A model generated the notes under the pieces. That model was not told where the DNA came from. It ran no database searches and worked only from the letters and a program-made list of their open reading frames with translations. Shown here one piece after another: positions 9,701-31,071 of a DNA stretch of 41,063 nucleotides. The translations under genes were made by a program, and so were the position numbers. The DNA comes from a virus (taxonomy: Duplodnaviria > Caudoviricetes), in IMG/VR virus record IMGVR_UViG_3300021142_000073, positions 1 through 41,063 of that record. One strand, 5' to 3'. Numbering within the stretch: the stretch's first letter is position 1; each line of letters starts with the position of its first letter.

Positions 9701-12700
9701 TTTTTAGACAATTATTACAAGAGACTTAATAAAGCAATATATTCAAATAGCAATAAAATTTATACTCCAGAGGCACATCAAGCGTTCATGGAAAACATTA
9801 AAAACGCTATTGATGAATACAAAAACTGGGATAATTCAAAAACCATTTCTAATAAAACTTTAGCATTATTACACAATGCCGTTGAAGAATTCGGTGCTAA
9901 TTACTTTAGCCATTGGCTAGTTGATACACCACCAGATTATTTATTTAGAGGCGGTGATTTAACAGGATTAAGAGGTATTGTTGATGATGTTAAATATGCT
10001 TGGGCTGATTATTGGGAATCTAAAATGAAATACGAAAATCCACAATTTGATTTTAGTGGAAACTTGGAACGTGGTTTTTTTGATAAAGCAGGAAATCGCA
10101 TTAAAAATGCTTCTTTAGATTACATGATGCGTGATATTCTTAGGGCTAAAGCAAATATGAATAAAGGTGTTTGGAGTCCATTAAGAATGTCTCCAGATGC
10201 TGTTAAGGCATACGTTCGTGGCAATGGTATGGCTAATGTCATTAAAACTGATGTTGCTGGCAGACCTAAATTATTAAAGGAATCAGAAGCAGAAAAACTC
10301 AATAGAGCCGCTGGTATTGCTATCAACAAGATTATTGAAGGGTTACCCCCAGAAGATAGAGTTGGTCTTAAAAAAGATGCTGATGGTAATTGGACTGGCA
10401 GATTAAACTCTAAAATCCTTGACATGATTGTTCAGTCTGGCTGGAGAGACAGAGCATGGGCTGACAAGATTGAACACGCTTATCGCATCATTGATGGCAA
10501 TGCTGAGAACGTTGTAGAAGCAGGTTATCTTGGTGCTACGGCACAAATTACTGATGCTTCATGGCCTCGCCTAACAGGAAAAGATGTTCCGTTCAAGAAC
10601 AGAAAATTCTTATTGTACGATGCAACAACAAAAATTGGACCTGATGGCACTTTCCATGTCTTGCTTCATTCGCTTGATATGCACGTCATTGAGAACAGAG
10701 CCAATGCTTTGTGGTCTAATCAAGAGTACAGAGATTTATGGTATGGCAACAGAGGTGCTATGGAAGCGGACTTCTTTAAGTACGTTCAAAACGCTTCTAA
10801 GCCTAGTTCTGAAAGATTGCAGTCTGCTAACTTGTTAAACAATGGTGACGGCAAAGGTGCTGAACGCCGTAATGTGCTTCACCAGATGCTTGGCATGGCT
10901 AAGACGGATGATAATCCATACTTTAACAAACCTATTGCCGAAATTCCACAGGGTTGGAGACAGTCTATCACTACATTTAATATTGATAGAATGACGCAAA
11001 TGCGTACCAGAGCAGGAGAACGCTTTGATTATAACCCAGAGAACGCTCATATTGCGTTATCGCATAACTGGAGTCCTGCTGATATGGAGTACGAAAACAC
11101 CAGTAATGGTCAAATTCTTAAACACGATTCTGAGTTTAAGTTTATTAGAGTAGGCAATTCTACCCAAGCATTTGATAATTTAGGCAGAAATTTAGGGTCT
11201 TTCCGTACGGCTGAAGAAGCCGCTAAAGCATCTAAAAAACTATTTGATACTAGAGTTAATAATCAAGAACAAGGTGGTCAAAAACTATTAGAACAAAACT
11301 ACGAAAGAATCGTTAAATTTTCACCTGCTTTATCTGATGAAGGAAAAGATGAGGCTTTTAAAAAAGGTGATGTTTATGATACTGATGAAATGAAGGCTTT
11401 TGTTAAAGGCAGACCACTTGTTGCTGGAGGATTAACTAGACAAGAATTAATTAAGAATTATTGGCATAATTTAATAGATTCAGATGGAAGTAAAATTAAA
11501 ACCTTTATTACACAACGTTATAAAGAAATTAAAGTTCAAATTAATAACAACAATAAACAAATTTCTGTTTTAAGGAAAAAAATAAATAATTTAGATTTTG
11601 GTTTTAGAAGCAGTGATGATGCTCAAAGAATTCTTCAAAATAAAGAATATATTTCTGCTGATGATTATCCATCTGAACTTAAATCTCAAATTAAAAATTT
11701 AACTGAACAATTAAAACTTTTAGATTCAAAGAATGATTTGTTTAGTGAGTTTATCAATACTTTTGAATCATATACTAATAAAAATGATAATTATAATGGA
11801 GGATTTATATATGATAAATCTTTTATTGTTAATATGTTAGAGGAAAGTAATCAAAGTATTTTATTTGGACACCTTTACGATGACCAAATTCAAACAGGAA
11901 AACCATTTGTTACTACTGCAACGCATGGTACTTCTTCTATTAAATTATTAACAAATAAAATTTTTTCAGAGGAAAGTTTAGGAAACAATACGCTTTGTTT
12001 ATCTGCCGAAATGGGAACATTTTTTGCTGGTTCTCAAGAAACTAGCACAGCATATGCTGATAAAGTAAAACATCAATTAAGGGCGGCTATTGCAATGGAC
12101 AATCCTCTTGTAGTTTCATTTCCTAGAGCATATGATGAAAGTTTTTTATCTCAACATATTCAAAGAGCCATTAATGGTGGATATGATGGAGTTGTATTTA
12201 AACAATTAGCCGACCCTGCTTATCCTGATACGATTTTTTGCGTATTAAAAGGAAAAACAAACGACAATATTAAAGTAATTGAAAGTTCCATTGATAAAAT
12301 AAACAGAGTTCCAAGAGGTAAAATGCCAGATGGCTCAAAGCCAATTAGCATATATCAAATGAACAATGGAAATACATCTCATTATCATGAATTCCTTGCA
12401 TTTAGTCCTAATGAAGAAGAACCTTCTCAAGAAGTAAAACAAAGAGCAAAAGAAGCAGGATATAGACCTACTGTTTATTATCATGGCACTAATAGGGATT
12501 TCAATGTATTTGATGCTAATGCAGAAAGACAATACGGTGAAAAAAGAAATGCAGGTATGTTTTTCTTTACTCCAAGATTAGATGAAGCAACTAATATTCA
12601 TAATGACACAAGTAAAGTAATGCCTGTTTTTCTAAAAGCAGACAATCCATTTAATACAGATTTAGGAAAATCTCCAAATTTTAACGTTTCTGATACTAAA

Positions 12701-15700
12701 AAAATTAAAGATTATTTTTACAAAAATGCCAATTATAGTGGCGATAGAAATTATTTAATGGATGTGCTTGATGGTTATTTAGAAAGAAATGAATTTGGAA
12801 CAGCAATTCAAAAATATCTTTCAAGACCACAAAGAATTGAACTTCTTGAAAGTTTAGGATACGATTCGTTACTTGATAAAGGAGAACATATTGTTGTTTT
12901 CCATCCAGAACAAATTAAATCTGCAAAGAGTTTTACTTATGATGACAAAGGAAATGAAATTCCACTAAGTCAGCGTTTTGATAAAAATAATCCAGACATT
13001 AGATATAGTCCTGCTAATAATAATTATCGTGGCGGGGATGATTATTGGAAACCTAGAAACCCATTTGAGGATAAAGATGAACAAGGTTTTAGAATCAGAA
13101 ATGTTCTTGTAGATAATAGTGTATTAAAAAATGACCCAGAAGCACGAGGTGGAGAATTTCATCCAGAATATGTAGATTGGGAAGATATTGGTCATTATCC
13201 ACAAACAAGAGCAACACGTGAAGAGAATTCACATGAATGGAAAAATTCTGGATTATGGGTTGATGACAAAGAAAAAGGTATTCTTACAAAAAACCCAGCA
13301 AGTGAAAGTGATGATGTTGGATATACCCATGCGGAATGGTTTGATTCACCAAGATATAGACATGACGAATATCCAACACCAGATTCTTATGGTAGATATG
13401 AAAAACCAAGATATGATAAAAATGGAAAATTAATTGACAGAGGACGCATCAGTATTGCTCACAGAGGTTATGAACATTTTGAAGGAGCGGCTCAATTACA
13501 TGATATTAAAAAACGTGTTGCTGATAAACTTGGTGTACCTGTTAATCATATTGACGCTTATGCTTTTGGTTTTGGTAAATGGAAAAACGACTTTGGCATT
13601 AGCAATGAAGATAAATTGCCAGTCAAGTTTAGTCCTGCTGATGAATCTTCTGCTAGACAGCCAATTAAGATTAAATCTGAACTAGAAGATTTAGTTAAAG
13701 ATGTATTTGGTAAATATAAGCATCTAAATGCTAATGGATTTGCTAATAAACTTCAACAAATGGGCGGTGAACGTGGCTATAAAGGGTTTAAAGAAGCACA
13801 AGCCATTGGACTCATTGACCATATTTCCAGAAAAAAACCTAATGAAAATTTAGACCCTCAAGAAATTCTTCAATTTATTAAAGATAATGGTATTGATTTA
13901 AATGTAGAAAGACATGCAAAAAGTGTTGATATTCCAGACACTTCTAAATATGTTTCTGCTGGAACTAGAAGTAATTATGAAGATATTGCTACAAGAATTA
14001 ATGAACAACATGCTCATGGAATTGAAGGTCACTTTGGTGGAGGCGATGTAGTTGTTCATACAAGATTAGATGACCGTATTAATTCTGATACAGGCGAAAA
14101 ACATACTTTAGTGCATGAAGTTCAAGCAAATAATGTAGATAAAAGTAACAAAATTGCAACTCCAGAAGAAATTGAAAAAGTAAGAAAAAAACTTGCAGAA
14201 CATGAAGCACTTAAATCTCATTTTATTAAATTAGGAATTTTTAATGAAAAAAATGGTCATTTAAGAAATGATATATTTAATTATTTACACGACAATGATG
14301 CTTCAAAAATTATACGGCAAAGATTTGATTGGTCAAATCCCGAAGGAGAACATGAATTAGATTGGAAAGAACATGAAATTATTTTAAAAGATAAAATTAT
14401 TGGAAAGTATTATAAACTTCTTTTATCTCAACGTTTTCCAAAAGAACTTGCTGCTGAATTTGCTTTTAAAATTGCGTGGATTCAAAATAGAGAAATTAAA
14501 AGATTTTTAAAAAATAGTTATGAATCACAATCGCAGATTAATAAAACACAATATAATAATGATACATTTTCAAAAGATGAAGTTTTAAAAACTGCTATTA
14601 AAGAATATTCAAAAATCAAAAGACCATCTAAGGAATTGTTTGAAACTCATTTTAGTCCTTATGTAACTAATTGGTTTGAAAATAACAAAATAGGAGATGA
14701 AATTTCTTCAGAAGTTAAAAAAAGAATTATTGATGAATTAAATTCAAAAGAAATTAAACCTCATCTTCAATTTGATGATGAAGTAATTGATAAACTTGCT
14801 GACATTTATAAATTATTAGCAGACAATCCTTTAAGTAGTTCTATATATAAAAAAGAAGATTGGAAAAATGGAAAAGCACAAAATAAAAATGGGGCACAAA
14901 GTTTCAATCAAACATTATATGATGATTTAAAAAATAAAAAATTAGAATTTAAAAAATTACATCCAGAATTAGATTTTAATTATAATAATAGAAACGGTTG
15001 GGATGGGTTTGATGATTGGTGGAATTCAGCAATTACTAATTCAGCAGATTTTTCTGATAATATTACTAATTTAAAAACAACCTTAAAACAATTAGAAAAT
15101 TCTTTAAACCCAAAAAAACTCCCTTTATCTGATGTTAAAGAATGGTCTATTATTTCATTAAAAAACACTATTGAAAGAGCGATTGAAAGTGGAAGTCAAA
15201 ATGTAACTTTAACACATCCGTTTGATTCACCTCCGCACTCATTCATGAAACCAAATGCGGCTCAAAGACTTTACGGAGAAATTATTCCTAGTGCATGGAA
15301 GGAATGGCTTAAAAAATACAACATAGAAGTAAAACAATTAAATCCTGATGCCAAAATTGATATTCCTTGGGATACAAAAAATAAAAATACATTAATTAAT
15401 TTAAAAAATGAATATTCAGACCTTGCAAAAGATACAGAAATAAAAAGAAGAAAATTAAAAGGAACTTTTGAAACTGTTGTTGATAATGAAGAATTAAAAT
15501 CAAAAGAACATCCAGATATTATTCATGCTATTGAATCTTGGATGAATGTTGGATGGGAACATTTTGAAAATATAAATGTATATAGAGATAGAATTATAGA
15601 TTCAATTCAAACTCCAGAATTAAGAAAAACAATAGAAGCATTTTTTAAATCTGTTGAAAAAGAATACGAATTTATTTTGGGAAATTGCGATGAGGATAAA

Positions 15701-16024
15701 TTAAAGCAAATTATGACTGATACGGCTCTTAATCGTGGCATGACGTTTAAGATTAATGACAAACTTAGAAATGATTTTGCTAACAATAATATTAGTATTT
15801 ATCGTTCTCCAGCAGATGAAACGCCTAGAAACATTACTTGGCAGTCTGAAAACACATCAGCAGGTAGCATCATAAAAAATACTGCTGGTTATGTAATTAT
15901 GAAATCAATGAGTAAATATAGGGTTTATAATCCATACAAAGCATTAGTAGGCGTTTACGATGATGAAAAGACGGCTATGGGTAAGATTAACAAACTAAGC
16001 CGTACACCAAATGAACTCAGATGA
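6758..16024 (+). CDS. giant internal virion (ejection) polyvalent protein with zincin metallopeptidase and ADP-ribosyltransferase-like modules
   Basis: 3088 aa. Gly/Ala hydrophobic N-terminal region; HELFH plus downstream EEFGA (about 9560-9900); two HGT...G.FF...NP...GYD modules (about 11920-12250 and 12470-12920); modules delimited by [FYWR]SP motifs. Confidence 0.8.
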   Translation: MGEIFESNSGAFHNDPETGNKIPVITGNQDVDAKLNGMTNDERDEYFKQLNAPLKGEEIADLLQNAGQNGYKPTKEEFQTFKAYRDTIATDYLKNINDAATYMYGEGLYGLKHIATAGAGNPEALLMGGISPYELAESFARGTRNLGGMLLESEDPNSIFFKSSKMWRSMNESAYPWMQQSNNPDDLEYNTFLDALNFRLETEKLANGDETLLVGKNHIDNRFVEAASTITDPSWFVNAEELTIPLKLLTKSVVGVENLQRFNNVVGKAGAITNKIKNGVLGGALKFGGMPIEFIGNAVRGSIDTATELGGKAFNGLTGVPINDFKATAKLGTIGAGVSGIDVPLVAGAGKTYLGASLAIGVGEAMQAIGTQIMKGERGFMSYAEMALKESVENGVKLTEPAKNILKLIQSADPLFSYASNFGKGALHGAIVGGALGYLSDEEEGLSKGIGAGLAMGSMGALVSSTAGSISDASVNARAATQAKLVMESLKEHNPDRYNFFKAYYDYIETKRNNDPRLRALADKMVSGLDQIAPDVALHLLDPKGYLEVANRLGLDENARVRDATIGSLSNANPNERAIILSLLRDYSGRYAGRPEDFQREAESDVRELSPKQQELLKTKVEPRPQEPAQLHTDLPYGSQERIDSYNQSRAVKEWDAKYDETHFRNGHAKPAWMLKDVEARPTQYQMPYDQWKRLNPEEQQKVSKKQQDSKWDVSEWDRKYADTHDYTGKPLKGESLYFPDTPDRLANVKSLEQDAVNKHESQLREPQGPIKLQAIKQKWGSLSETGKRTFLDILKQHSELFKEKTNKEASAYYGDLLAAENARKAVLKAHNGNIDTNQVPDTLKAQKLAKDFLDAERNPDGSLTQRGKMIKTKLQHEGFVDENGNIMQRREAQRLPITLADLKSAKGITPERDANGRVHIYLNSDNMTRDTFPHELFHAIMRETAMRDMFIKPLVDKLLGTWKDGKQVSKPVVNLNEVYQFLDNYYKRLNKAIYSNSNKIYTPEAHQAFMENIKNAIDEYKNWDNSKTISNKTLALLHNAVEEFGANYFSHWLVDTPPDYLFRGGDLTGLRGIVDDVKYAWADYWESKMKYENPQFDFSGNLERGFFDKAGNRIKNASLDYMMRDILRAKANMNKGVWSPLRMSPDAVKAYVRGNGMANVIKTDVAGRPKLLKESEAEKLNRAAGIAINKIIEGLPPEDRVGLKKDADGNWTGRLNSKILDMIVQSGWRDRAWADKIEHAYRIIDGNAENVVEAGYLGATAQITDASWPRLTGKDVPFKNRKFLLYDATTKIGPDGTFHVLLHSLDMHVIENRANALWSNQEYRDLWYGNRGAMEADFFKYVQNASKPSSERLQSANLLNNGDGKGAERRNVLHQMLGMAKTDDNPYFNKPIAEIPQGWRQSITTFNIDRMTQMRTRAGERFDYNPENAHIALSHNWSPADMEYENTSNGQILKHDSEFKFIRVGNSTQAFDNLGRNLGSFRTAEEAAKASKKLFDTRVNNQEQGGQKLLEQNYERIVKFSPALSDEGKDEAFKKGDVYDTDEMKAFVKGRPLVAGGLTRQELIKNYWHNLIDSDGSKIKTFITQRYKEIKVQINNNNKQISVLRKKINNLDFGFRSSDDAQRILQNKEYISADDYPSELKSQIKNLTEQLKLLDSKNDLFSEFINTFESYTNKNDNYNGGFIYDKSFIVNMLEESNQSILFGHLYDDQIQTGKPFVTTATHGTSSIKLLTNKIFSEESLGNNTLCLSAEMGTFFAGSQETSTAYADKVKHQLRAAIAMDNPLVVSFPRAYDESFLSQHIQRAINGGYDGVVFKQLADPAYPDTIFCVLKGKTNDNIKVIESSIDKINRVPRGKMPDGSKPISIYQMNNGNTSHYHEFLAFSPNEEEPSQEVKQRAKEAGYRPTVYYHGTNRDFNVFDANAERQYGEKRNAGMFFFTPRLDEATNIHNDTSKVMPVFLKADNPFNTDLGKSPNFNVSDTKKIKDYFYKNANYSGDRNYLMDVLDGYLERNEFGTAIQKYLSRPQRIELLESLGYDSLLDKGEHIVVFHPEQIKSAKSFTYDDKGNEIPLSQRFDKNNPDIRYSPANNNYRGGDDYWKPRNPFEDKDEQGFRIRNVLVDNSVLKNDPEARGGEFHPEYVDWEDIGHYPQTRATREENSHEWKNSGLWVDDKEKGILTKNPASESDDVGYTHAEWFDSPRYRHDEYPTPDSYGRYEKPRYDKNGKLIDRGRISIAHRGYEHFEGAAQLHDIKKRVADKLGVPVNHIDAYAFGFGKWKNDFGISNEDKLPVKFSPADESSARQPIKIKSELEDLVKDVFGKYKHLNANGFANKLQQMGGERGYKGFKEAQAIGLIDHISRKKPNENLDPQEILQFIKDNGIDLNVERHAKSVDIPDTSKYVSAGTRSNYEDIATRINEQHAHGIEGHFGGGDVVVHTRLDDRINSDTGEKHTLVHEVQANNVDKSNKIATPEEIEKVRKKLAEHEALKSHFIKLGIFNEKNGHLRNDIFNYLHDNDASKIIRQRFDWSNPEGEHELDWKEHEIILKDKIIGKYYKLLLSQRFPKELAAEFAFKIAWIQNREIKRFLKNSYESQSQINKTQYNNDTFSKDEVLKTAIKEYSKIKRPSKELFETHFSPYVTNWFENNKIGDEISSEVKKRIIDELNSKEIKPHLQFDDEVIDKLADIYKLLADNPLSSSIYKKEDWKNGKAQNKNGAQSFNQTLYDDLKNKKLEFKKLHPELDFNYNNRNGWDGFDDWWNSAITNSADFSDNITNLKTTLKQLENSLNPKKLPLSDVKEWSIISLKNTIERAIESGSQNVTLTHPFDSPPHSFMKPNAAQRLYGEIIPSAWKEWLKKYNIEVKQLNPDAKIDIPWDTKNKNTLINLKNEYSDLAKDTEIKRRKLKGTFETVVDNEELKSKEHPDIIHAIESWMNVGWEHFENINVYRDRIIDSIQTPELRKTIEAFFKSVEKEYEFILGNCDEDKLKQIMTDTALNRGMTFKINDKLRNDFANNNISIYRSPADETPRNITWQSENTSAGSIIKNTAGYVIMKSMSKYRVYNPYKALVGVYDDEKTAMGKINKLSRTPNELR

Positions 16025-17539: not shown

Positions 17540-18290
17540 AAGAGTAAATAAATTTGCTACCTACTTTATGTGCTTGCCAAACTTTCCAGTTATTACCTTC
17601 AACGTAGCCATAAAGCCAACCAGTACCCCATGTGCTGGTGTTAAGACGATTTTTGGAATAGCCCATAATGTCTTTCATGCAAAGGCAACCGCCACAAAAA
17701 CCAACAGTACCCTTATAACGGCGAGCATTTACCTGCATGATTAAATGAAGGTGTCCAATAAGGACAGCACCGCCTTCTAATCCATAATGTATAGCGTGTT
17801 CTTGAACTGCACGTGTTCCGCAGGTATAGCCATGACAGGTACGAACAGGACCAATAGAATAAACCCCTTTTTCTGCGTGATATGGTAAAATCTTTTTGCA
17901 ACCATATTTACGCAAGTAACGGTTAATGTCATCCATTAAGTCTTGGCAAGCATCTCGCTCAAGAGCATTAGTTGTAGTTGAAATAATTTGTTCTAACCTA
18001 TCTTCGTGATTTCCATTTAGGAAAACGTCTGGCTGATAATTCCTAATAAACCATTTACCAGCATCTACATCTTCTTTTAGAGATTCATTTCGCTCATTAC
18101 TATTAGCGTTTTTGCGAATACTGCGAAGGTCAAAACAATCGCCTCCATGAATCTTTATGTCTGGTTTAAACCATTTACAGAATTTAAATAACTCTTTAGC
18201 CGCTTCTACATCAACCATGTCTCCGTGGTTGTCAGATGCAAACACGAAATAAATACGTTTTTTATTCTTACGCTTTTTTAATTTTTTCAC
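17529..18290 (-). CDS. calcineurin-like metallophosphoesterase
   Basis: Complete motif set SDNHGD, GGDCFD, GNHE, HG and GHLH. Confidence 0.9.
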   Translation of the reverse strand: MKKLKKRKNKKRIYFVFASDNHGDMVDVEAAKELFKFCKWFKPDIKIHGGDCFDLRSIRKNANSNERNESLKEDVDAGKWFIRNYQPDVFLNGNHEDRLEQIISTTTNALERDACQDLMDDINRYLRKYGCKKILPYHAEKGVYSIGPVRTCHGYTCGTRAVQEHAIHYGLEGGAVLIGHLHLIMQVNARRYKGTVGFCGGCLCMKDIMGYSKNRLNTSTWGTGWLYGYVEGNNWKVWQAHKVGSKFIYSYDE

Positions 18291-18710: not shown

Positions 18711-19057
18711 TCTCGGATAAGAGGATGACCTTCTGGAAGATGAGAACAAATCTTATCTCCAATTTCCTCTAATGCTTTTAACTTGGTTTTAATTTCAGCA
18801 ATATCTGACAATGATTGATTAGGGTGTTTTCCGTTTAAGCGGTCACACATTTCCTTTGGGGAAACTCCAATTAGCAAAGCGGCTGCTTTTACTGAATTAG
18901 ATTTGACATTAAACGGACGAACTTCCGTGAATCCTTGAGATTGTTCCATGATTTTTCGTGCTACTGAGATTGGTATGCAAACGTATTTATTTTTAGGACC
19001 AAGTCTTGCAACTGAGTACCTTAAATACGTAATGCCATCAGTTTTGACTTCCTTCAT
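18686..19057 (-). CDS. hypothetical protein (HTH-like segment)
   Basis: 123 aa, AAALLIGVSPKEM; part of the tightly packed minus-strand operon. Confidence 0.55.
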   Translation of the reverse strand: MKEVKTDGITYLRYSVARLGPKNKYVCIPISVARKIMEQSQGFTEVRPFNVKSNSVKAAALLIGVSPKEMCDRLNGKHPNQSLSDIAEIKTKLKALEEIGDKICSHLPEGHPLIREWVKTKIL

Positions 19058-19235
19058 TTAATTTATTGTACAATTCAACAATGTCTTTAACATTAACACG
19101 CTTCATTTTCTTATTCAGAATTAGATTAATGTATGTTTGATTGTGAATTTTAGTAGGCTTTAGGATTCGTGCTACGTTACCATCTTGTAAGATGATATAC
19201 TGAGAATCTGGATAGTTGATGTAGGATTTAGACAT
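19038..19235 (-). CDS. small hypothetical protein
   Basis: 65-aa ORF in the operon; loosely resembles a NUMOD4-like beta domain. Confidence 0.5.
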   Translation of the reverse strand: MSKSYINYPDSQYIILQDGNVARILKPTKIHNQTYINLILNKKMKRVNVKDIVELYNKLNEGSQN

Positions 19236-24689: not shown

Positions 24690-25140
24690 GTTTATCTTTG
24701 GTTGCGAATTTAATGAGTTGTTTTAACGAAGTTTCAATAATTAAATTGGTTACTTCATCACGACCATTTAAGTTAATAAGGTAATGTAATCGGAAGCATG
24801 AAAAATTACTTTTATGCGTGGTGTAGAATTCCTCTAAGAAGTTTAGAGCGTCAATAGGCGAACGGAAATCAAGCAGGTGAATTCCACCTTTATTGATTAC
24901 ATCATAGTGCATTGCAATAGTGACAATAAACTTAGATGCGTACTCGTTTATGCTGTTTCCTTCTTTTACTCCAATGTGATTTAAAGATTGCTGAACAGCA
25001 TCTAAATCTTCTAGACGCTTTTTATCTAGCAATAGGTTTTGTAAGTTAGGAATGTTTAGCATTTTTGGTTTGGTTTGTTTGGTTGGTTTGGTTGATTTAC
25101 TCATTTTGGTTGGTTTAGTTTGGTTGGTTTGGTTACTCAT
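24682..25140 (-). CDS. early hypothetical protein (start uncertain: 25140, 25104 or 25062)
   Basis: Three in-frame ATGs, each preceded by an AACC-rich tract. Confidence 0.55.
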   Translation of the reverse strand: MSNQTNQTKPTKMSKSTKPTKQTKPKMLNIPNLQNLLLDKKRLEDLDAVQQSLNHIGVKEGNSINEYASKFIVTIAMHYDVINKGGIHLLDFRSPIDALNFLEEFYTTHKSNFSCFRLHYLINLNGRDEVTNLIIETSLKQLIKFATKDKHE

Positions 25141-25423
25141 GGTTGGAAACAATGGTTGGTAAGAATTCGCATAAGTCATATTCAGCATTTAATCGGTCTT
25201 GTAAATAACTTTCTACGAATTTTTTGTCTTGTTCAGTTAATTGATGTTCAAAAGCAGAACTTGGTTGTTCCCAATTGGTTACTTTTACAGATACGAATTG
25301 AGCAAAGTTGCCGTCTGGTGTTTGGTTTAATTTCCATTTAGCATAACCAGACACCAATAATGGTGCTGGTGATGTAATGAAGTTATTAAAAAATGGCATT
25401 GTGAAAATCTCTAGTGGTTCCAT
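25133..25423 (-). CDS. early hypothetical protein
   Basis: 96 aa with an AACC-rich leader. Confidence 0.6.
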   Translation of the reverse strand: MEPLEIFTMPFFNNFITSPAPLLVSGYAKWKLNQTPDGNFAQFVSVKVTNWEQPSSAFEHQLTEQDKKFVESYLQDRLNAEYDLCEFLPTIVSNHE

Positions 25424-25457
25424 TTGGTTGGTTAGTTATTTTGGTTGGTTTGGTTGG

Positions 25458-25658
25458 TTAAATTGTTTCGTAATCAAAACCTAGTAGGCAATAGCCATAT
25501 TGGTCACTCAAATAGTCTGCAATATAGTCATCAAAATCGCATTTAATCATATCCCAAGTATTTTCGGACAAGTTAATTGTTACTTCAATAGGAAGTCCCA
25601 AAATCTCTTTTTCAGATTCTAAAACATCCCAATTTATATTATAAATAAAAAATGTCAT
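25458..25658 (-). CDS. small very acidic early protein
   Basis: 66 aa, INWD...LP..V...DYIADYLSDQYGYC..GF; AACC leader. Confidence 0.65.
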   Translation of the reverse strand: MTFFIYNINWDVLESEKEILGLPIEVTINLSENTWDMIKCDFDDYIADYLSDQYGYCLLGFDYETI

Positions 25659-25688
25659 TTGGTTGGTTTGGTTGGTTTGGTTGGTTGG

Positions 25689-25922
25689 TTATTGGTTTCC
25701 GTGAATCAATTCGTCAGGCTCAATCAGGATTCCGTAAATCTTGTGCCAACTTCGGAACTCTTTATTCTTTTTTAAGTCTGGAGGAACTGATGCAAGCCAA
25801 TAATTTTGCCCCTCCAGATTGGTTGCAAGGCGTAAAATTGACCCTTTAGGGATAACAAAACGCTTGTTTTGCCAACCCCAACAGCGATAAATGTCAATTT
25901 CAGTTTTGATTCGTTTTTTCAT
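25689..25922 (-). CDS. small basic early hypothetical protein
   Basis: 77 aa, IPKG....A.N....YW. Confidence 0.6.
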   Translation of the reverse strand: MKKRIKTEIDIYRCWGWQNKRFVIPKGSILRLATNLEGQNYWLASVPPDLKKNKEFRSWHKIYGILIEPDELIHGNQ

Positions 25923-25927
25923 TTGGT

Positions 25928-26026
25928 TTATTGGTTGATGATAAAGTTGTAAATGTCATGACCCTTTGCAAGTACCAAGTAGAGGTAAATTGCAATAAAG
26001 GTTAATGGTATTAGTATATATTTCAT
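25928..26026 (-). CDS. 32-aa membrane microprotein
   Basis: MKYILIPLTFIAIYLYLVLAKG...; the longer ORF-track start runs through the tRNA-like RNA. Confidence 0.5.
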   Translation of the reverse strand: MKYILIPLTFIAIYLYLVLAKGHDIYNFIINQ

Positions 26027-26038
26027 GATTGAGAAAAG

Positions 26039-26145
26039 GGGATGACTCAGGAATCGAACCTGACACCTTGGGATTTCACCCGACAACCCTTGCGGGATGC
26101 CATGGTCTTTAAACCATTTGCCAGCAGGACACCAGCCCGTCATCA
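26039..26145 (-). ncRNA. non-canonical tRNA-like RNA (about 106 nt)
   Basis: Acceptor-like GATGAC/GTCATC; perfect T arm TCAGG-TTCGATT-CCTGA; D-like GGGC-TGGT-GTCC; three hairpins in place of the anticodon and variable arms. Confidence 0.7.
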
Positions 26146-26174
26146 AAAATTAATCTACTTTCCAACCACCAAAC

Positions 26175-26194
26175 AAGGGGAATTGCTTCCCCTT
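26175..26194 (-). other. GNRA-tetraloop hairpin after the first leftward early gene
   Basis: AAGGGGAA-GCAA-TTCCCCTT on the minus strand, with only a weak U-tract. Confidence 0.6.
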
Positions 26195-26200
26195 TCCTGC

Positions 26201-26602
26201 TTAAGATAACGATAGTTTAACCTTCGATAAGATTTCTGGTAATGAGTTTTTGACCTCATCTTTAATCTTATCTGAGATTTCACCTGCAATTTCATCCATG
26301 ATTTCTGATTTGATTTCGCTGTTATCAAGTCCCTGAAGTTCTTCAGAAACATGTTCACGAACGAAATCTTGGGATGCAATGTCATTGGAATAAACACAGT
26401 CATCAAAGTGACCTTCAAAGTCATCTTCATTTACCTTGTTTTCCAATTCGCTTTCTAAACTGTCTTTTAGTTCTTCTAGTTTAGATTCTAACTGTTTAAT
26501 TTCCTCCCTTAGTTCGCCAAGTTTTACCTTGGTCGAAAGTAGAGATTCTAGTTCGGAAACTAGTTCAGTTAGTCCTAGCAGTTTTAATAATAACTTCTTC
26601 AT
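26201..26602 (-). CDS. acidic coiled-coil early protein
   Basis: 133 aa, about 34 D/E against about 17 K/R by hand count; first gene of the leftward transcript. Confidence 0.75.
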   Translation of the reverse strand: MKKLLLKLLGLTELVSELESLLSTKVKLGELREEIKQLESKLEELKDSLESELENKVNEDDFEGHFDDCVYSNDIASQDFVREHVSEELQGLDNSEIKSEIMDEIAGEISDKIKDEVKNSLPEILSKVKLSLS

Positions 26603-26675
26603 TTGGTTTGGTTTGGTTTGTTTGGTTGGTTGGTTATCCCACCCTAGGCATTGGTTGCCTTGGTTGGAAAGTAGA

Positions 26676-26741
26676 TTTCAAAGAGCGTGTTAGGTGGTTG
26701 CCTAACATCAACAAAGGTACTCATGGCTGGTTCGGTTGCAA
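26676..26741 (-). promoter_or_regulatory. leftward early promoter + hairpin + boxA
   Basis: TTGCAA-16-TACCTT, then TGTTAGG-CAACCA-CCTAACA, then CGCTCTTTGAAA. Confidence 0.7.
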
Positions 26742-27140
26742 GAGTATTTATATCCTATTAGGAAATCTAATAATGTATCCAAGATTTACTTATCATGGTT
26801 TAGATTTCGTAGTTAGGATTAAAATGCTGGTTAGAACAAATGAAATAAGAAAGTAAAGCAAATATAATCAATAAATAAATCAGTAGATGACCTAATAATG
26901 CTGATTAGATTTATTAATCATGACAAAACTACTCAAGATTAGCACTCTAATCATGACTGATTTACTAATCATTACCTAGTCAAGCATGATTAAAGTACCT
27001 AAGATTAAACTAATCATGTAATCATGAGTAAACTAGTCATATTTCACCGCTAAGGGGTCTAGATTGCCTTTTAAGCCATCTTTATAAAAGTCCTTACCAT
27101 ATCATGGACCTTTAGGGGTTTTTCAGGAAAATCATAAAAC

Positions 27141-27149
27141 TTATTCACA
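27141..27149 (+). promoter_or_regulatory. DnaA-box-like site
   Basis: TTATTCACA fits TTWTNCACA; single copy. Confidence 0.35.
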
Positions 27150-27159
27150 TGCGTCTGAC

Positions 27160-27176
27160 TTGGCATGGTTACTGCT
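27160..27176 (+). promoter_or_regulatory. sigma54 (-24/-12)-like site
   Basis: TTGGCATGGTTACTGCT with GG-N10-GC spacing. Confidence 0.45.
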
Positions 27177-27528
27177 TACAATGCCATTTACAGGTAATCA
27201 TGATAACATTAGTAAACTACTCATGATTAGTTTTTGAAACTGAGACTCAATCTCAATTCAATTTAGAATCATTCTAGGAAATCGTCAAAAAACTGTAAAA
27301 TCGCATTAGAACCATCTGGAAGGCGATTCTAGAGGGGGTTTGTAAAAGTCCTTACCATATCATGGACTAGGCATGAAAAGGGTCTTTACAGGCAAATGTG
27401 AGGGACAGCGATTTCGACCAATGTTTATAGGGGTTTTATGACTTTTCCTGACATGTAAAGCAAATTGTTGTTTTTAGGTAAAAAAACCACCTGACTGAAA
27501 AATAATTACCTAAATAGGAAAAAATGTG

Positions 27529-27596
27529 TTGAACTTGTATAATTCCTAGTCATATTCGATGTTGTCAGCGGTTCACCTGCTGACTGTTCTTTCAGA
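27529..27596 (+). promoter_or_regulatory. rightward early promoter + hairpin + boxA-like element
   Basis: TTGAAC-16-CATATT, then GTCAGCGG-TTCAC-CTGCTGAC, then TGTTCTTTCAGA. Confidence 0.65.
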
Positions 27597-27714
27597 TAGG
27601 TTTCCCTCGATTTCCTGCCGCCCCCTATGGGGTTTCACGCTGCGGTCAAAGTCTGGTTCATCCGCTCCCACGGATTTTTAAAAACCTTTCCTGTTCCTTC
27701 TCAGTCCAAAAAAA

Positions 27715-27784
27715 CCACCTGATGAGTCCTAGACGGACGAAACAGAGGTAAACTTCGCTATATGCGAATCAGACTCTGTAGTGG
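27715..27784 (+). ncRNA. type I hammerhead ribozyme
   Basis: CCAC-CTGATGA-GTCC(TAGAC)GGAC-GAAA-CAGAG...CTCTG-TA-GTGG; full catalytic core, predicted cut after GUA at 27780. Confidence 0.92.
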
Positions 27785-27818
27785 CTATATTGCCCAAAAA
27801 ACCAAACAAACAAAACCA

Positions 27819-28700
27819 ATGCGTAACAACCAAAACCCTAACTTCTCTACTGAACTAGTAGATACAAACATCCGCCAATCCTGCGAAGCGGATTTCCAAG
27901 TTGAAATCGTTCCGCTCTTTCAAGCGGACGGATTGCCAACAGGACTGAAAGCAACCCGCCGAACTGATTTAGGCAAAGTTTTTGCCTCAGTAGGCAATCA
28001 ATATGCTGTGGTGCAAAACAGCGAATTGATGAACAAAGCGGAACCTCAGTTTATCCAAAAACTAGGTGATTTTAATAAGAAAGTTTACCTAGTCGATGAA
28101 GGTCAGCGGACTTACATTCGCTACGACTTCAAAAACTATGGTTTCACGAATAAGAAAGTTGGAGACCATCAAATCCGCTTTGAACTTCGCAATTCGTTCG
28201 ATGGCTCTACCAAGGTTTCCCTTGCGTTAAGCCTACTGCGAGTGGTTTGCAGTAATGGAATGACCATTACAGAGGATGGATTCAATCTTCAGCAAAAACA
28301 CAACCAATTAGTCTCGATTGATAAAATCGGCGACTCAATTGACTTAGCAATCGAACTGTTCGCTAAGAAGCATGAGCAGATTATCCAAGCAGGCGAAACT
28401 GCGATTAGCCAATTGGAAGGTCATAAAATCCTGAACGGACTTGTTACCCGCAAATTAGTGGCAGAGCGGGTTGCTAATGAGATTCGAGAGTTGTGGGACA
28501 AGCCAACCTACGCTGAAGATGCTGACCGTAATTTGTACAACCTGCAAAACGCCATTACTCAGCATTTAACTCATGGCATGGAATTAGGTCGAAACAAGTT
28601 TGAGTTAGCAAATCGCTTGTCCGCTCGACTCAACGCAACCATCTTCGCCGAGATGACCAGAGGCAATTTAGACTCCCTCATGGTAGAATCGCTTAACTAA
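27819..28700 (+). CDS. DUF932-family protein
   Basis: V...Y.VVQN, RNSFDGS, LRVVCSNGM and NLYNL.NA.T motifs; start at 27819 after an AAAC-rich leader. Confidence 0.85.
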   Translation: MRNNQNPNFSTELVDTNIRQSCEADFQVEIVPLFQADGLPTGLKATRRTDLGKVFASVGNQYAVVQNSELMNKAEPQFIQKLGDFNKKVYLVDEGQRTYIRYDFKNYGFTNKKVGDHQIRFELRNSFDGSTKVSLALSLLRVVCSNGMTITEDGFNLQQKHNQLVSIDKIGDSIDLAIELFAKKHEQIIQAGETAISQLEGHKILNGLVTRKLVAERVANEIRELWDKPTYAEDADRNLYNLQNAITQHLTHGMELGRNKFELANRLSARLNATIFAEMTRGNLDSLMVESLN

Positions 28701-28724
28701 GAACCAGAAAACTAATTCGACAAA

Positions 28725-28752
28725 GGGGATAGCAGGAGAAACCTGCTTCCCT
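28725..28752 (+). other. intergenic RNA hairpin
   Basis: GGGA-T-AGCAGG-AGAAA-CCTGCT-TCCC with no U-tract. Confidence 0.55.
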
Positions 28753-28785
28753 AATGTCATTAAAAACTAACTACAAACTAATCAC

Positions 28786-29136
28786 ATGAGAAAAACATAT
28801 CTAATCGTAACTCAGTTTTATGAGGACTATGAAGTTCGCTTCACGCCGAAAGGTGGTTCATGGTTTCTTGTTGAAGCAGTAGATTTCGGAACTGCGATTT
28901 CGCTGGTTCAGAAATACCTAGTCAGGAAAGAAGTTGAGTGGTTAAAGAAAGGTGAGAACCATGCAATCTCGATTGAGTTTCCTATTATTCCAGATGACCA
29001 AAACACCAACATCTTTAATGGGTTCTCGCAAGCGTTGGAGGCGATTCCTGCGTGGGAAAGAGATTCGTACAAGCATCTTGTACAACTTCATAAGAAATTG
29101 GACTACCAAGAGGTTTACCAATCCTGTAAAGACTAA
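28786..29136 (+). CDS. early hypothetical protein
   Basis: 116 aa, TQF.E.Y....PKGG motif; repeated leader. Confidence 0.65.
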   Translation: MRKTYLIVTQFYEDYEVRFTPKGGSWFLVEAVDFGTAISLVQKYLVRKEVEWLKKGENHAISIEFPIIPDDQNTNIFNGFSQALEAIPAWERDSYKHLVQLHKKLDYQEVYQSCKD

Positions 29137-29149
29137 ACTAATTACAAAC

Positions 29150-29326
29150 ATGACCACTAACGAACAAATCGAAAAACTGAAACAGGAGTCTAACAAACTC
29201 CTGCGTACAGCATTAAACTGCCAAGCAGTAGACAAAGGCGGTTTTAGTTTTGCGCAAACGGAGGCATGGATTGCCTATGACAATTCCCTTGCGGAACTAA
29301 GCAAACTGATGTTATCCAAAAACTAA
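29150..29326 (+). CDS. small early hypothetical protein (58 aa)
   Basis: ATG at 29150 after a CTAAACTAATTACAAAC leader. Confidence 0.6.
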   Translation: MTTNEQIEKLKQESNKLLRTALNCQAVDKGGFSFAQTEAWIAYDNSLAELSKLMLSKN

Positions 29327-29338
29327 CTACAAACTAAT

Positions 29339-29620
29339 ATGCTAATCAATAACTGCGAAGATTTCCAAACAGCATTAGACCACGGTGAGTACACGGAACT
29401 AGGCTGCTATCCGTGTTATTTCACGACTAGTGACGGTGACTGCCTGTGTTTTGAAACTGCTGTGAAGGAAAAGGAAAGAATCATGGAGGCGATTAAAGAG
29501 AAATCTAAATGTGGCTGGAGAGTAGTAGCGTTTGATGTGAATTGGGAGCATTGGTTGCGTTGCTGTCATTCCAACAAACTAATTCCCTCAGCATATCCTC
29601 CGCTAGATGAATCGTTCTGA
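29339..29620 (+). CDS. small Cys-containing early protein (widespread phage family)
   Basis: G.YP.YF.T.DG..LC...W.VV..DVNWE..L.C......I.SAY pattern. Confidence 0.7.
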   Translation: MLINNCEDFQTALDHGEYTELGCYPCYFTTSDGDCLCFETAVKEKERIMEAIKEKSKCGWRVVAFDVNWEHWLRCCHSNKLIPSAYPPLDESF

Positions 29621-29639
29621 GTAATTAAATAATCAATAC

Positions 29640-29669
29640 AACCCTAGACTAACCCTCTAGGGTTTTTTT
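29640..29669 (+). terminator. Rho-independent terminator of the rightward early operon
   Basis: ACCCTAGA-CTAACCC-TCTAGGGT followed by a T-run. Confidence 0.85.
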
Positions 29670-30189
29670 GTGCCTGTTTGGTTTTCTGGTTGGTTGGTTT
29701 GTTTGGTTCGTTTTATTAAATCGTGTATATAAATAGTCCTTACAAATCGCGGGACGCTAAATCAAAAACGAATGGTTTGTAATGATTTTCTAATTACAAT
29801 TTGGTTTGGTTGAAATGTAAATGGGATTGAATGGGATGGGAACCTGTAAGAACTTTGCACCTACAAAAACCTGATTGGTTTGATTGGTTCTGTTTGTATC
29901 CATATTTCAATTACAGACTTTGTAATGGCTTTGTCATTACAGTCGCGTAGTTAGTTTTCAATTACATTTTCTATATCAGGCCTGACCTGCCCCCCGAGGG
30001 GGGGGGATGCCTTGGTTGGCATACGGCGGTCAAACCCACCAATCCAATCGCATAACTTTTTTTTGCCAAAAAGCGTTATACCAGTAATTTTGTGCTTGAC
30101 AGAATGGGGGATTCTCCCCCCTAATAACCCCCCTATCTTAACCCCCTCACTCCCCCTAAGTATTAGGGGGACGAGAATTAACTACTTAC

Positions 30190-30234
30190 TTGACAATTAA
30201 ATAATATCAATGAAGATAAGGTAGTTCTTTGATT
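30190..30234 (+). promoter_or_regulatory. tRNA-cluster promoter with boxA-like element
   Basis: TTGACA-16-GAAGAT, then AGTTCTTTGATT. Confidence 0.5.
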
Positions 30235-30237
30235 TCT

Positions 30238-30309
30238 GGTCTGGTAGTTCAATGGCAGAACACTTGTTTTGTAAACAAGGGGTTGTCGGTTCAATTCCGA
30301 CTCGGACCT
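30238..30309 (+). tRNA. tRNA-Thr(TGT)
   Basis: Cloverleaf; anticodon arm CTTGT-TTTGTAA-ACAAG; T arm GTCGG-TTCAATT-CCGAC; no encoded CCA. Confidence 0.9.
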
Positions 30310-30315
30310 TACTTT

Positions 30316-30387
30316 TGCAGGGTACAGTTCTGGGAACTGGTGTGTCTCATAAGCACTTATAGGTGGGTTCGATTCCCACTCCTGCGA
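30316..30387 (+). tRNA. tRNA-Met/Ile2(CAT)
   Basis: Acceptor TGCAGGG/TCCTGCG; loop CTCATAA; T arm GTGGG-TTCGATT-CCCAC; lacks the three initiator G-C pairs; no encoded CCA. Confidence 0.8.
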
Positions 30388-30558
30388 CTTGACAGTACCC
30401 CTAACGACGCTAACGCTCGCACCATAGGGGGCAAACTTTAGTTGGACCTGTAAGATATAATTAATTTTAGAGGGGTATAAAGGTTTTACTATCCAAACAT
30501 AGATAAATATAGTTTACAAACCATACTTGGTCTAAAAAACCATCCAACTTCCACTTTA

Positions 30559-30630
30559 CGACCATTAACTCAACGGATAGAGTAACCGCCTTCTAAGCGG
30601 TCTATCTAGGTTCAATTCCTAGATGGTCGA
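30559..30630 (+). tRNA. tRNA-Arg(TCT)
   Basis: Acceptor CGACCAT/ATGGTCG; ACCGC-CTTCTAA-GCGGT; T arm CTAGG-TTCAATT-CCTAG; no encoded CCA. Confidence 0.92.
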
Positions 30631-30672
30631 ATCTACTTGACAAATGTAAATTAATTTATTATTCGTCAATAA

Positions 30673-31071
30673 ATGAGCGAAAAAGAACTTTGCATTGCAT
30701 TAGGCATAACACGTGAGTTAATGAAGAAGTTAAGAAGTTCTTTTGAAGAATTTAAGCATTGGCAAAGAATCCCATCAAGAAAACCTGAAAGGTTATGGGA
30801 AATTGAATGGACGCTAGAAGGCATTTCATTACTTAAAAACCAACTTGGATTAAAGAAAGAAGAACAGATTGAACCTCCAAAGATTATTACAGGCAAAGTT
30901 TACGCTAAGTTTAACAACAAACACGTTATTCAAGTAATGGTAGATGGAAAGAAAGAAAACGTTATTTGTAAAGATAACAGCAAGTTTATTCCTAATATGG
31001 AAGTTAAAATTCGCTGGGACGGAACTAGATGGTGCGTAATTCGTCATCCTAAATATCAAGGTAAATACTAA
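30673..31071 (+). CDS. hypothetical protein with N-terminal winged-HTH-like region
   Basis: SEKELCIALGITRELMKKLR...W; first gene of the late operon. Confidence 0.65.
   Translation: MSEKELCIALGITRELMKKLRSSFEEFKHWQRIPSRKPERLWEIEWTLEGISLLKNQLGLKKEEQIEPPKIITGKVYAKFNNKHVIQVMVDGKKENVICKDNSKFIPNMEVKIRWDGTRWCVIRHPKYQGKY

Follow-up and report, generated by a model that had tools for sequence, protein, structure and literature searches.

A conserved small RNA family of tailed phages with tRNA-like ends and a three-hairpin insert

Phage RNAs that carry tRNA-like ends have been described in T4 (RNAC and RNAD) and in T5, and their function is given as unknown in the parts of the literature available for them (PMC3014915, PMC9697503); T5 RNA1 and RNA2 are annotated as 'tRNA-like stable RNA with unknown functions'. 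For the YrlA RNA, a protective role of its tRNA fold has been proposed, and the RNA is cut by RNase P and tailed with CCA, according to the accessible portion of PMC4201824. A precedent for a tRNA chassis loaded with a cargo is provided by the engineered tRNA scaffold, as described in an excerpt of PMC3753655. Here we analysed a window, meaning a whole stretch of 41,063 nucleotides, which makes up the complete record of a 41-kb tailed phage, has direct terminal repeats and carries a tRNA-ended element on its minus strand. Judged by the sequences of the element and its relatives, it represents a real, conserved and uncatalogued small RNA family, the scope of which is five sequences from uncultured phages. 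In the open-access literature searched, this family was not found to be described.

Fold of the element and its conservation in relatives

The initial annotation had read the locus as a tRNA-like RNA in which three hairpins replace the anticodon region, and all of the parts that it named were recovered on the minus strand, among them the T arm, the 6-bp acceptor, the UGGU D-like hairpin, ATGGT-TTAAAG-ACCAT and GGG-TGAAAT-CCC (Table 1). The GCAA hairpin was present as well, but the 3 bp assigned to it were wrong and its true length is 8 bp with one U.U (26101-26082). Likewise, the locus itself was right, but its ends had to be moved from 26145 and 26039 to 26144 and 26038/37. In the window copy, GATGAC (26144-26139) was found to pair with GTCATC (26046-26041), the D-like hairpin stands flush with this acceptor, positions 8-9 being absent, and a 4-bp P3 of TGCT/GGTG (26126-26123 with 26067-26064) is possible. 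The window copy does lack an encoded CCA, as had been observed, its 3′ end being C-CC-T; however, this means little, because the genes of the three true tRNAs of the window likewise lack CCA and those of all four relatives of the RNA include it. These N-CCA ends of the relatives fix the acceptor length at 6 bp (7 in L017). In L017, moreover, hairpin 1 is a GCAA tetraloop hairpin instead of one with the UUAAAG loop.

Table 1. Coordinates of the window copy, its parts and its immediate surroundings
Feature	Position	Strand	Basis or remark
Upstream 133-aa ORF	26201..26602	-	phrog_3550, E 1e-4; also present in a relative without the RNA
Terminator-like hairpin, between upstream gene and RNA	26178..26192	-	consensus match only
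Complete gene of the tRNA-like RNA (108 nt, counting discriminator C and the CC(U) tail)	26037..26144	-	R1 model 123.9 bits, by construction
Acceptor 5′ strand GAUGAC, 6 bp (7 bp in L017)	26139..26144	-	double-sided change in 2/6 pairs
D-like hairpin GGGC-TGGT-GTCC, 4 bp, NGGU loop	26127..26138	-	double-sided change in 3/4 pairs; GGU invariant in 5/5
P3 5′ strand YGCU, tentative insert-closing helix	26123..26126	-	one covarying pair (UA x3, CG, UG)
Conserved linker GG(C/A)AA	26118..26122	-	homologue comparison
Hairpin 1, ATGGT-TTAAAG-ACCAT, 5 bp, UUAAAG loop	26102..26117	-	1 compensatory pair
Hairpin 2, 8 bp in 5/5, GCAA loop (UAAC in L017)	26082..26101	-	2 compensatory pairs, 2 one-sided, 1 mismatch in 2/4
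Hairpin 3, GGG-UGAAAU-CCC, UGAAA of T-loop type	26070..26081	-	invariant
AA and P3 3′ strand GGUR	26064..26069	-	homologue comparison
T arm UCAGG-UUCGAUU-CCUGA	26047..26063	-	homologue comparison
Acceptor 3′ strand GUCAUC, discriminator C, CC(U); N-CCA in relatives	26037..26046	-	homologue comparison
Downstream 32-aa hydrophobic ORF	25928..26026	-	also present in a relative without the RNA

A descriptor made of a T arm, a flush 6-bp acceptor and a flush NGGN hairpin, which was drawn from the element itself, had a single match in the window and none in 200 shuffles. The folding energy was unremarkable (z -1.38, with 18 of 200 shuffles equally good), and the strong evidence for the element is its homologues, not its folding energy.

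When viral and metagenome contigs were scanned with patterns, five distinct sequences were obtained, namely the window copy, L017 (in G001), L024 (in G003), L034/L020 (in G002) and L036; they represent only about three independent lineages, so that the counts overstate independent events. In one viral contig scan, four of nine loci were members, including the window phage, and the other five were tRNA-Phe; in a second, four of 23 were members and the remainder were ordinary tRNAs or chance matches, and further scans (four of 13 and four of 40) gave no additional members. The 40-locus scan left a clean gap in model score, with members at 82-129 bits and all others at or below 25.6. The metagenome scan returned eight loci, of which five were members (three identical to the G002 type, L036 and the window phage) and three were chance matches. 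No member was found by pattern scan among 185,579 prokaryote genomes, and nothing in cultured phages matched the window region; when L024 was the query, 61 records of cultured phages gave partial matches, none of them over more than 80% of the query. Pairwise identities ranged from 82 to 106 of 108 positions, with 99 shared by the window and L036 and 106 by L024 and L034.

A single model of 35 pairs accommodates all five sequences, none of which has more than one mismatch to it. A model-fitted alignment (A3) gave 20 of 35 compensatory pairs, but the 6/7-bp register shift and the unrelated hairpin 1 of L017 make this count too high, and our covariation figures therefore rest on a gap-free alignment of four sequences (A2). 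In A2, 98.6% of the 140 cells pair as against 33-51% in slid controls, and 10 of the 35 pairs are changed on both sides, spread over six of the seven helices; ten or more compensatory pairs were reached by 14 of 500 shuffles. When the window was compared with L024, 22 of 26 differences fell in stems, and pairing was kept in 20. RNAalifold recovered the same fold minus P3, and P3 is treated as tentative because it holds a single covarying pair and is thermodynamically weak. The single-sequence pair probabilities (ViennaRNA) were 0.00-0.07 for P3, 0.00-0.53 for the D hairpin and 0.00 for the T arm of L024. A covariance model of the homologues, as the initial annotation had proposed, was built from four of the five members (R1) and separated members (82-129 bits, with the unseen L017 at 82) from tRNAs (27 bits or less). 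Furthermore, the T loop and the D-loop GG occur in five of five sequences, which together with the compensatory changes supports the tRNA-elbow mimic first proposed. The same changes in A2 refute the decaying pseudo-tRNA that had been considered beside it.

No change was seen among the five sequences in the T loop, in the GG of the D loop, in GCUGG or in GGG-UGAAAU-CCC-AAGGU, and the core can be written as GCUGG / UGAAAU-CCCAAGGU. The acceptor varies freely in sequence and in length (6 or 7 bp), as do the discriminator (C, U, A, A, U) and the hairpin 1 and 2 caps. The letters with the strongest invariance lie in the inserted domain and not in the tRNA half, a point that the earlier reading had overlooked. 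Two viral scans each freed one core motif, and the four viral records that they returned were identical; the invariance of the core is therefore not only a search artefact, but every search pattern held part of the core, and members with both core motifs changed would thus be missed. In the FMN riboswitch, the T-loop reads UGAAA and accepts an intercalating base in tertiary contacts, as stated in an excerpt of PMC3764141. By this analogy, the loop of hairpin 3 would be a T-loop, and the conserved linker As are candidates for intercalation into it.

Genomic settings of the element

The window carries the terminase, major head protein and scaffold genes on the plus strand and the recombination and replication genes (exonuclease VIII, Erf, a DnaC-like loader and endonuclease VII) on the minus strand, where the element heads the replication block. 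Three ordinary tRNAs were called by ARAGORN at 30238-30630 on the plus strand; the element therefore does sit away from the real tRNA cluster, as first described, being 4 kb distant and on the other strand. From this gene content, the element and its neighbours are presumed to be early. The sequencing runs that contain at least half of the words of the region are freshwater metagenomes (8 of 22 rows), and three of them were flagged as a possible source. The exonuclease profile gave two genome contigs as host candidates at 37% identity, too distant for naming a host, and matches to the major capsid protein were all below 35% identity.

Other features of the window were recorded as well. A hammerhead-ribozyme core (CUGAUGAG...GAAAC) at 27699-27748 on the plus strand scored 26.3 bits with Rfam Hammerhead_3, under the cut-off of 48.5; it directly precedes the DUF932 gene at 27762, and its stem I is not evident. 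The tRNA-Met(CAT) at 30316-30388 (plus strand, 35.5 bits) has a weak D arm and is possibly degenerate or initiator-like. A 3088-aa ORF at 6758-16024 (plus strand) had no PHROG match, and the PF05588 match of a 65-aa ORF at 19038-19235 (minus strand), at 20 bits against a cut-off of 21, is likely due to chance.

In two relatives, the RNA is preceded by a promoter-like cassette consisting of an A-rich tract, a TTG/TCG hexamer, 16-18 nt and a -10-like hexamer; these cassettes are motif matches and not mapped starts. G001 holds 21 of them on the plus strand between 20556 and 44145, compared with a mean of 0.1 and a maximum of 1 in 100 base shuffles. For 20 of the 21, an ATG follows within 31 nt; behind the remaining one, it is the RNA that follows, at a distance of 26 nt, and 15 nt past the CCA of the RNA another cassette begins. 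In L036, one of three cassettes ends 23 nt ahead of the RNA, and TTGACA follows directly after it. The window copy has neither a cassette nor a promoter-like site just upstream, and it would thus need to be cut from a longer transcript. The G001 cassettes each head a small early gene, and the same type occurs three times in L036.

In G002 and G003, the element comes last among the tRNA-ended members of an RNA array. ARAGORN called no tRNA in this array, which also contains RNAs of about 215 nt and about 160 nt with 7-bp acceptors, T arms and multi-hairpin middles. This structured-RNA array of about 1.4 kb (290-1700 in L024, and in L020) lies between the terminase and head genes, and no Rfam or ARAGORN match was obtained for its RNAs. 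The longer of these two RNAs combines its 7-bp acceptor and T arm with a 6-bp D stem (CUGGU loop) and an insert of several hairpins, and the shorter one bears a CUUAAAAA loop. The array also holds a still longer RNA ending in T arm-ACCA and, after the element, a closed-stem RNA of about 100 nt.

Block replacement was observed at the same slot. In X19, a relative with about 90% identity on either flank, exactly 26039-26145 (107 bases) is replaced by 79 other bases. A related replacing sequence was found at the same edge in X22, from the same study as X19, and in X4, from another study, which holds both alleles of the slot. The 79-base replacing element is probably another small RNA gene. Its last 30-36 bases at the 3′ side are partly conserved between the two studies, with an acceptor-like strand at the end and without a T loop, and its motif was found in no viral contig. 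Among 25 related phage records found by the exonuclease profile, 12 of them at least 90% complete, none carried the RNA; one weak match proved to be a tRNA-Ser. Block replacement and this absence from related phages mark the RNA as an exchangeable accessory gene. The carriers do not form one phage group, since the terminase and head type of the window differs from the lambda-like terminase, portal and protease of G001 and G002, although G001 and the window share some early genes. With carriers from different phage groups, the RNA appears to move between phage lineages. Taken together, the own cassette in two relatives, the array end in two others and the exchange at the slot fit a stand-alone accessory RNA rather than a processing signal.

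Candidate functions of the RNA

We tentatively favour the explanation that the element is a stand-alone gene, likely early, whose RNA would be matured by tRNA enzymes and would sequester a host protein through its three-hairpin module. The element would be transcribed early in infection, and the host tRNA-maturing enzymes would trim the RNA (RNase P) and add CCA. The tRNA half, with the acceptor, the T arm and the mini D-loop with its GG, would be a chassis that defines the ends precisely and resists nucleases. Around the UGAAA T-loop, the invariant junction may, through a putative tertiary fold, form the working surface, by which the insert would bind and tie up a host protein. In favour of this stand the conserved sequence and fold, the free acceptor beside an invariant core, the CCA of the relatives, the cassette in two of them, the place at the end of an array in two others and the block replacement in close relatives; among the points against it are the small number of independent lineages, the low single-sequence pair probabilities, the missing cassette of the window copy and the 6-bp acceptor, which falls below the 7 bp named as a major RNase P determinant in the accessible portion of PMC4201824. 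A wider version of the idea, which seems improbable to us, would be a natural tRNA-scaffold system in which a chassis with exchangeable cargoes supplies RNA-only counter-defence or host-takeover effectors from early promoters, the element, the 160-220-nt RNAs of G002 and G003 and the 79-base element being alternative cargoes for different host proteins.

The main rival reading, which is possible though doubtful, is that the RNA acts as a decoy, with the acceptor/T-arm/CCA half soaking up tRNA-end enzymes (Cas12a3, CapRel-type pyrophosphorylases, RelA) and the insert only propping up the shape. The T arm and the D-loop GG are kept, CCA is encoded in four of four relatives, and the promoter cassettes are of early type. 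According to an excerpt of PMC12851939, Cas12a3 grips the T arm, the acceptor stem and CCA and tolerates the loss of other loops, and viral tRNAs cannot easily evade it in the view of its authors; CapRel pyrophosphorylates tRNAs against phage, as stated in part of PMC9712102. However, the invariant three-hairpin core is not needed for a decoy, and neither the acceptor sequence nor the discriminator is constrained, whereas the acceptor stem is read by FaRel2 in the excerpt describing it. A decoy for anticodon nucleases is unlikely because there is no anticodon arm, and one for CCA-end enzymes is possible.

A cis processing signal, at which RNase P and 3′ nucleases would cut to split an early polycistronic mRNA, is unlikely. 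The window copy lies between two ORFs without its own promoter, so that its excision would cut that transcript, and the replacing element of the relatives could be another such signal. Nevertheless, the RNase P/Z signal put forward in the initial annotation is unsupported as a conserved role, because G001 and L036 provide the RNA with its own cassette, followed by a separate one for the next gene in G001 and directly by TTGACA in L036, and because the RNA stands at the end of an array, as the last tRNA-ended member, in G002 and G003. Furthermore, an encoded CCA and an elaborate conserved insert would be superfluous for a cut signal.

We see only a slim chance that the element is a working but unusual tRNA-Phe, in which the GAA of a GUGAAAU loop decodes and the extra hairpins are an expansion or an intron removed later. 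Such a 7-nt loop can be drawn at tRNA spacing, contrary to the first reading; its distance to the T arm is the one seen in G32-bearing tRNA-Phe genes of phages (L001, L007, L008), some phage tRNA-Phe genes carry this very loop, its GAA is invariant, tRNA-Phe is among the best partial BLAST matches, and L017 forms four of the five anticodon-stem pairs. On the other hand, and in line with that first reading, a canonical anticodon arm (5-bp stem, 7-nt loop, Y32-U33) is absent: only three of five stem pairs form in all four aligned sequences, the bases that would complete the stem are engaged in hairpin 2, and position 32 is G. The acceptor branch is 6/5, with neither linker nor U8. As for an intron-containing pre-tRNA, the five sequences were seen to hold no conserved Y32-U33-anticodon or half-anticodon on the 5′ side and no splice motif of the bulge-helix-bulge type, and there was no ARAGORN or Rfam call for a tRNA-Phe. 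Descent of the 3′ half of the element from a tRNA-Phe is possible.

The reading as a small protein gene, translated from an ATG inside the acceptor (MTG...), is largely refuted and very improbable. The frame is open through the element in three of five sequences (window, L034, L036), and in L036 the ATG lies 18 nt after the promoter cassette, but L017 and L024 share a stop at the same codon, and the changes are even over codon positions (for example 9, 8, 8) and mostly non-synonymous (for example 5 synonymous, 13 non-synonymous), yet keep base pairs. A decaying pseudo-tRNA left by recombination, to which the missing terminal A of the CCA in the window copy and the absence of the element from most related phages could be ascribed, is just as improbable given the compensatory changes in six of seven helices and the retention of the element in phages with different head modules. 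A small share of the weight is left for roles beyond those listed.

Comparison with known RNA families

The element was called by neither ARAGORN nor Rfam, both among the searches recommended at the outset. No Rfam family was found for the whole window at gathering thresholds, for 25000-31000 at E<=10 or for the relatives, and a strong match to a known family, the outcome that had been set against the reading, was thus not obtained; this includes the canonical tRNA (RF00005). Of the usual tRNA features, the T loop and D-loop GG occur in five of five sequences, CCA in four of five and a 7-bp acceptor in one of five. As in tmRNA (RF00023), a 5′ acceptor and a 3′ T arm/CCA flank an inserted domain, and the relatives scored 14-24 bits with the tmRNA model from their ends alone (cut-off 47), the window giving no match. 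The element differs from tmRNA in its 108 nt, in having a D stem and in lacking both a tag frame and G3.U70, pair 3 being U-A or A-U. It resembles the YrlA Y RNA (RF02553), which also occurs in phages, in joining a tRNA-like D/T/acceptor module to another domain, but it has no Rfam match, no GNCGAAN0-1G Ro-binding motif and no permutation; a Ro60/TROVE gene was found in none of the five carrier records, three of which are incomplete. With tRNA-Sec (RF01852) it shares a 4-nt D loop with GG, the tRNA-Sec D stem being 6 bp with a 4-base loop in the accessible portion of PMC7609411, in contrast to the 4-bp D stem, the 6/5 or 7/5 rather than 13-bp branch and the lack of a UCA anticodon arm in the element.

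Several other tRNA-ended genes were encountered. L065 (372-446) and Microbacterium phage Juanyo (ON526972, 28569-28641) hold an unannotated tRNA-like gene of about 75 nt with a 7-bp acceptor, a T arm and a conserved GAUGCAGACAGGCAAUCGCAUAGG middle, without an anticodon arm and upstream of a DNA polymerase gene; it belongs to a family of its own, of which a cultured phage carries a member. The 75-nt gene of L065 contains GGG-TGAAAN-CCC-AAGGT but was rejected as a member (R1 22.6 bits), its Juanyo relative lacking the TGAAA loop. In L115 and L124 (about 17700-17800 and 18100-18220, respectively, counted on the minus strand), both from window-related phages, a long tRNA-ended RNA with a T arm and CCA sits inside tRNA clusters. 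Long-insert tRNA-like genes were seen in L087, L088, L094, L101, L108 and L109 (records of 135-476 kb), and in L103, L106, L107 and L074; their inserts end in TGAAA before the 3′ anticodon strand, and the genes resemble tRNA genes with introns from jumbo phages and giant viruses. In L083, L096 and L102, tRNA genes are adjoined by short elements that bear a T arm and an ACAGCAA motif. The core motif was not found in the supplementary files of Fremin et al. (PMC10690425) that were searched.

The favoured reading as a chassis with a cargo has its closest engineered parallel in the tRNA scaffold of the Ponchon/Dardel type, which keeps the acceptor, D and T arms and replaces the anticodon stem-loop by the cargo (PMC3753655, in the excerpt); that scaffold is artificial, and the element may work in the same mode. 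The early-type cassette in two phages and the presence and replacement alleles at one slot make the family testable, and its free acceptor and invariant T-loop core lend themselves to separate mutation. Binding of a host protein by the core would mean that phages use tRNA bodies as carriers of RNA effectors; if the ends matter, the RNA would be the missing viral answer to immunity that targets CCA ends.

In kind, the element belongs with T4 RNAC and with T5 RNA1 and RNA2, in that tRNA ends enclose a non-anticodon insert in a phage genome. T5 RNA1 and RNA2 (AY543070, 30501-30644 and 32959-33083) and the T4 RNAC/species 1 RNA (NC_000866, 70908-71046) are, like the element, RNAs of 105-145 nt with acceptor/T-arm ends and a structured insert. 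They differ from the element in sequence, scoring 8-11 bits with R1 compared with up to 23.6 for the tRNAs of the same genomes and 82-129 for members. Their predicted insert is a long rod with one hairpin, whereas that of the element is a three-hairpin junction, and the element is therefore a separate family. Furthermore, its 4-nt D loop stands flush with a 6-bp acceptor without a linker, and it is found either with early genes or in RNA arrays that contain no tRNA, whereas the T4 and T5 RNAs lie in tRNA clusters. The family is a small, well-bounded addition to the long-unexplained RNAC/RNAD of T4 and tRNA-like RNAs of T5.
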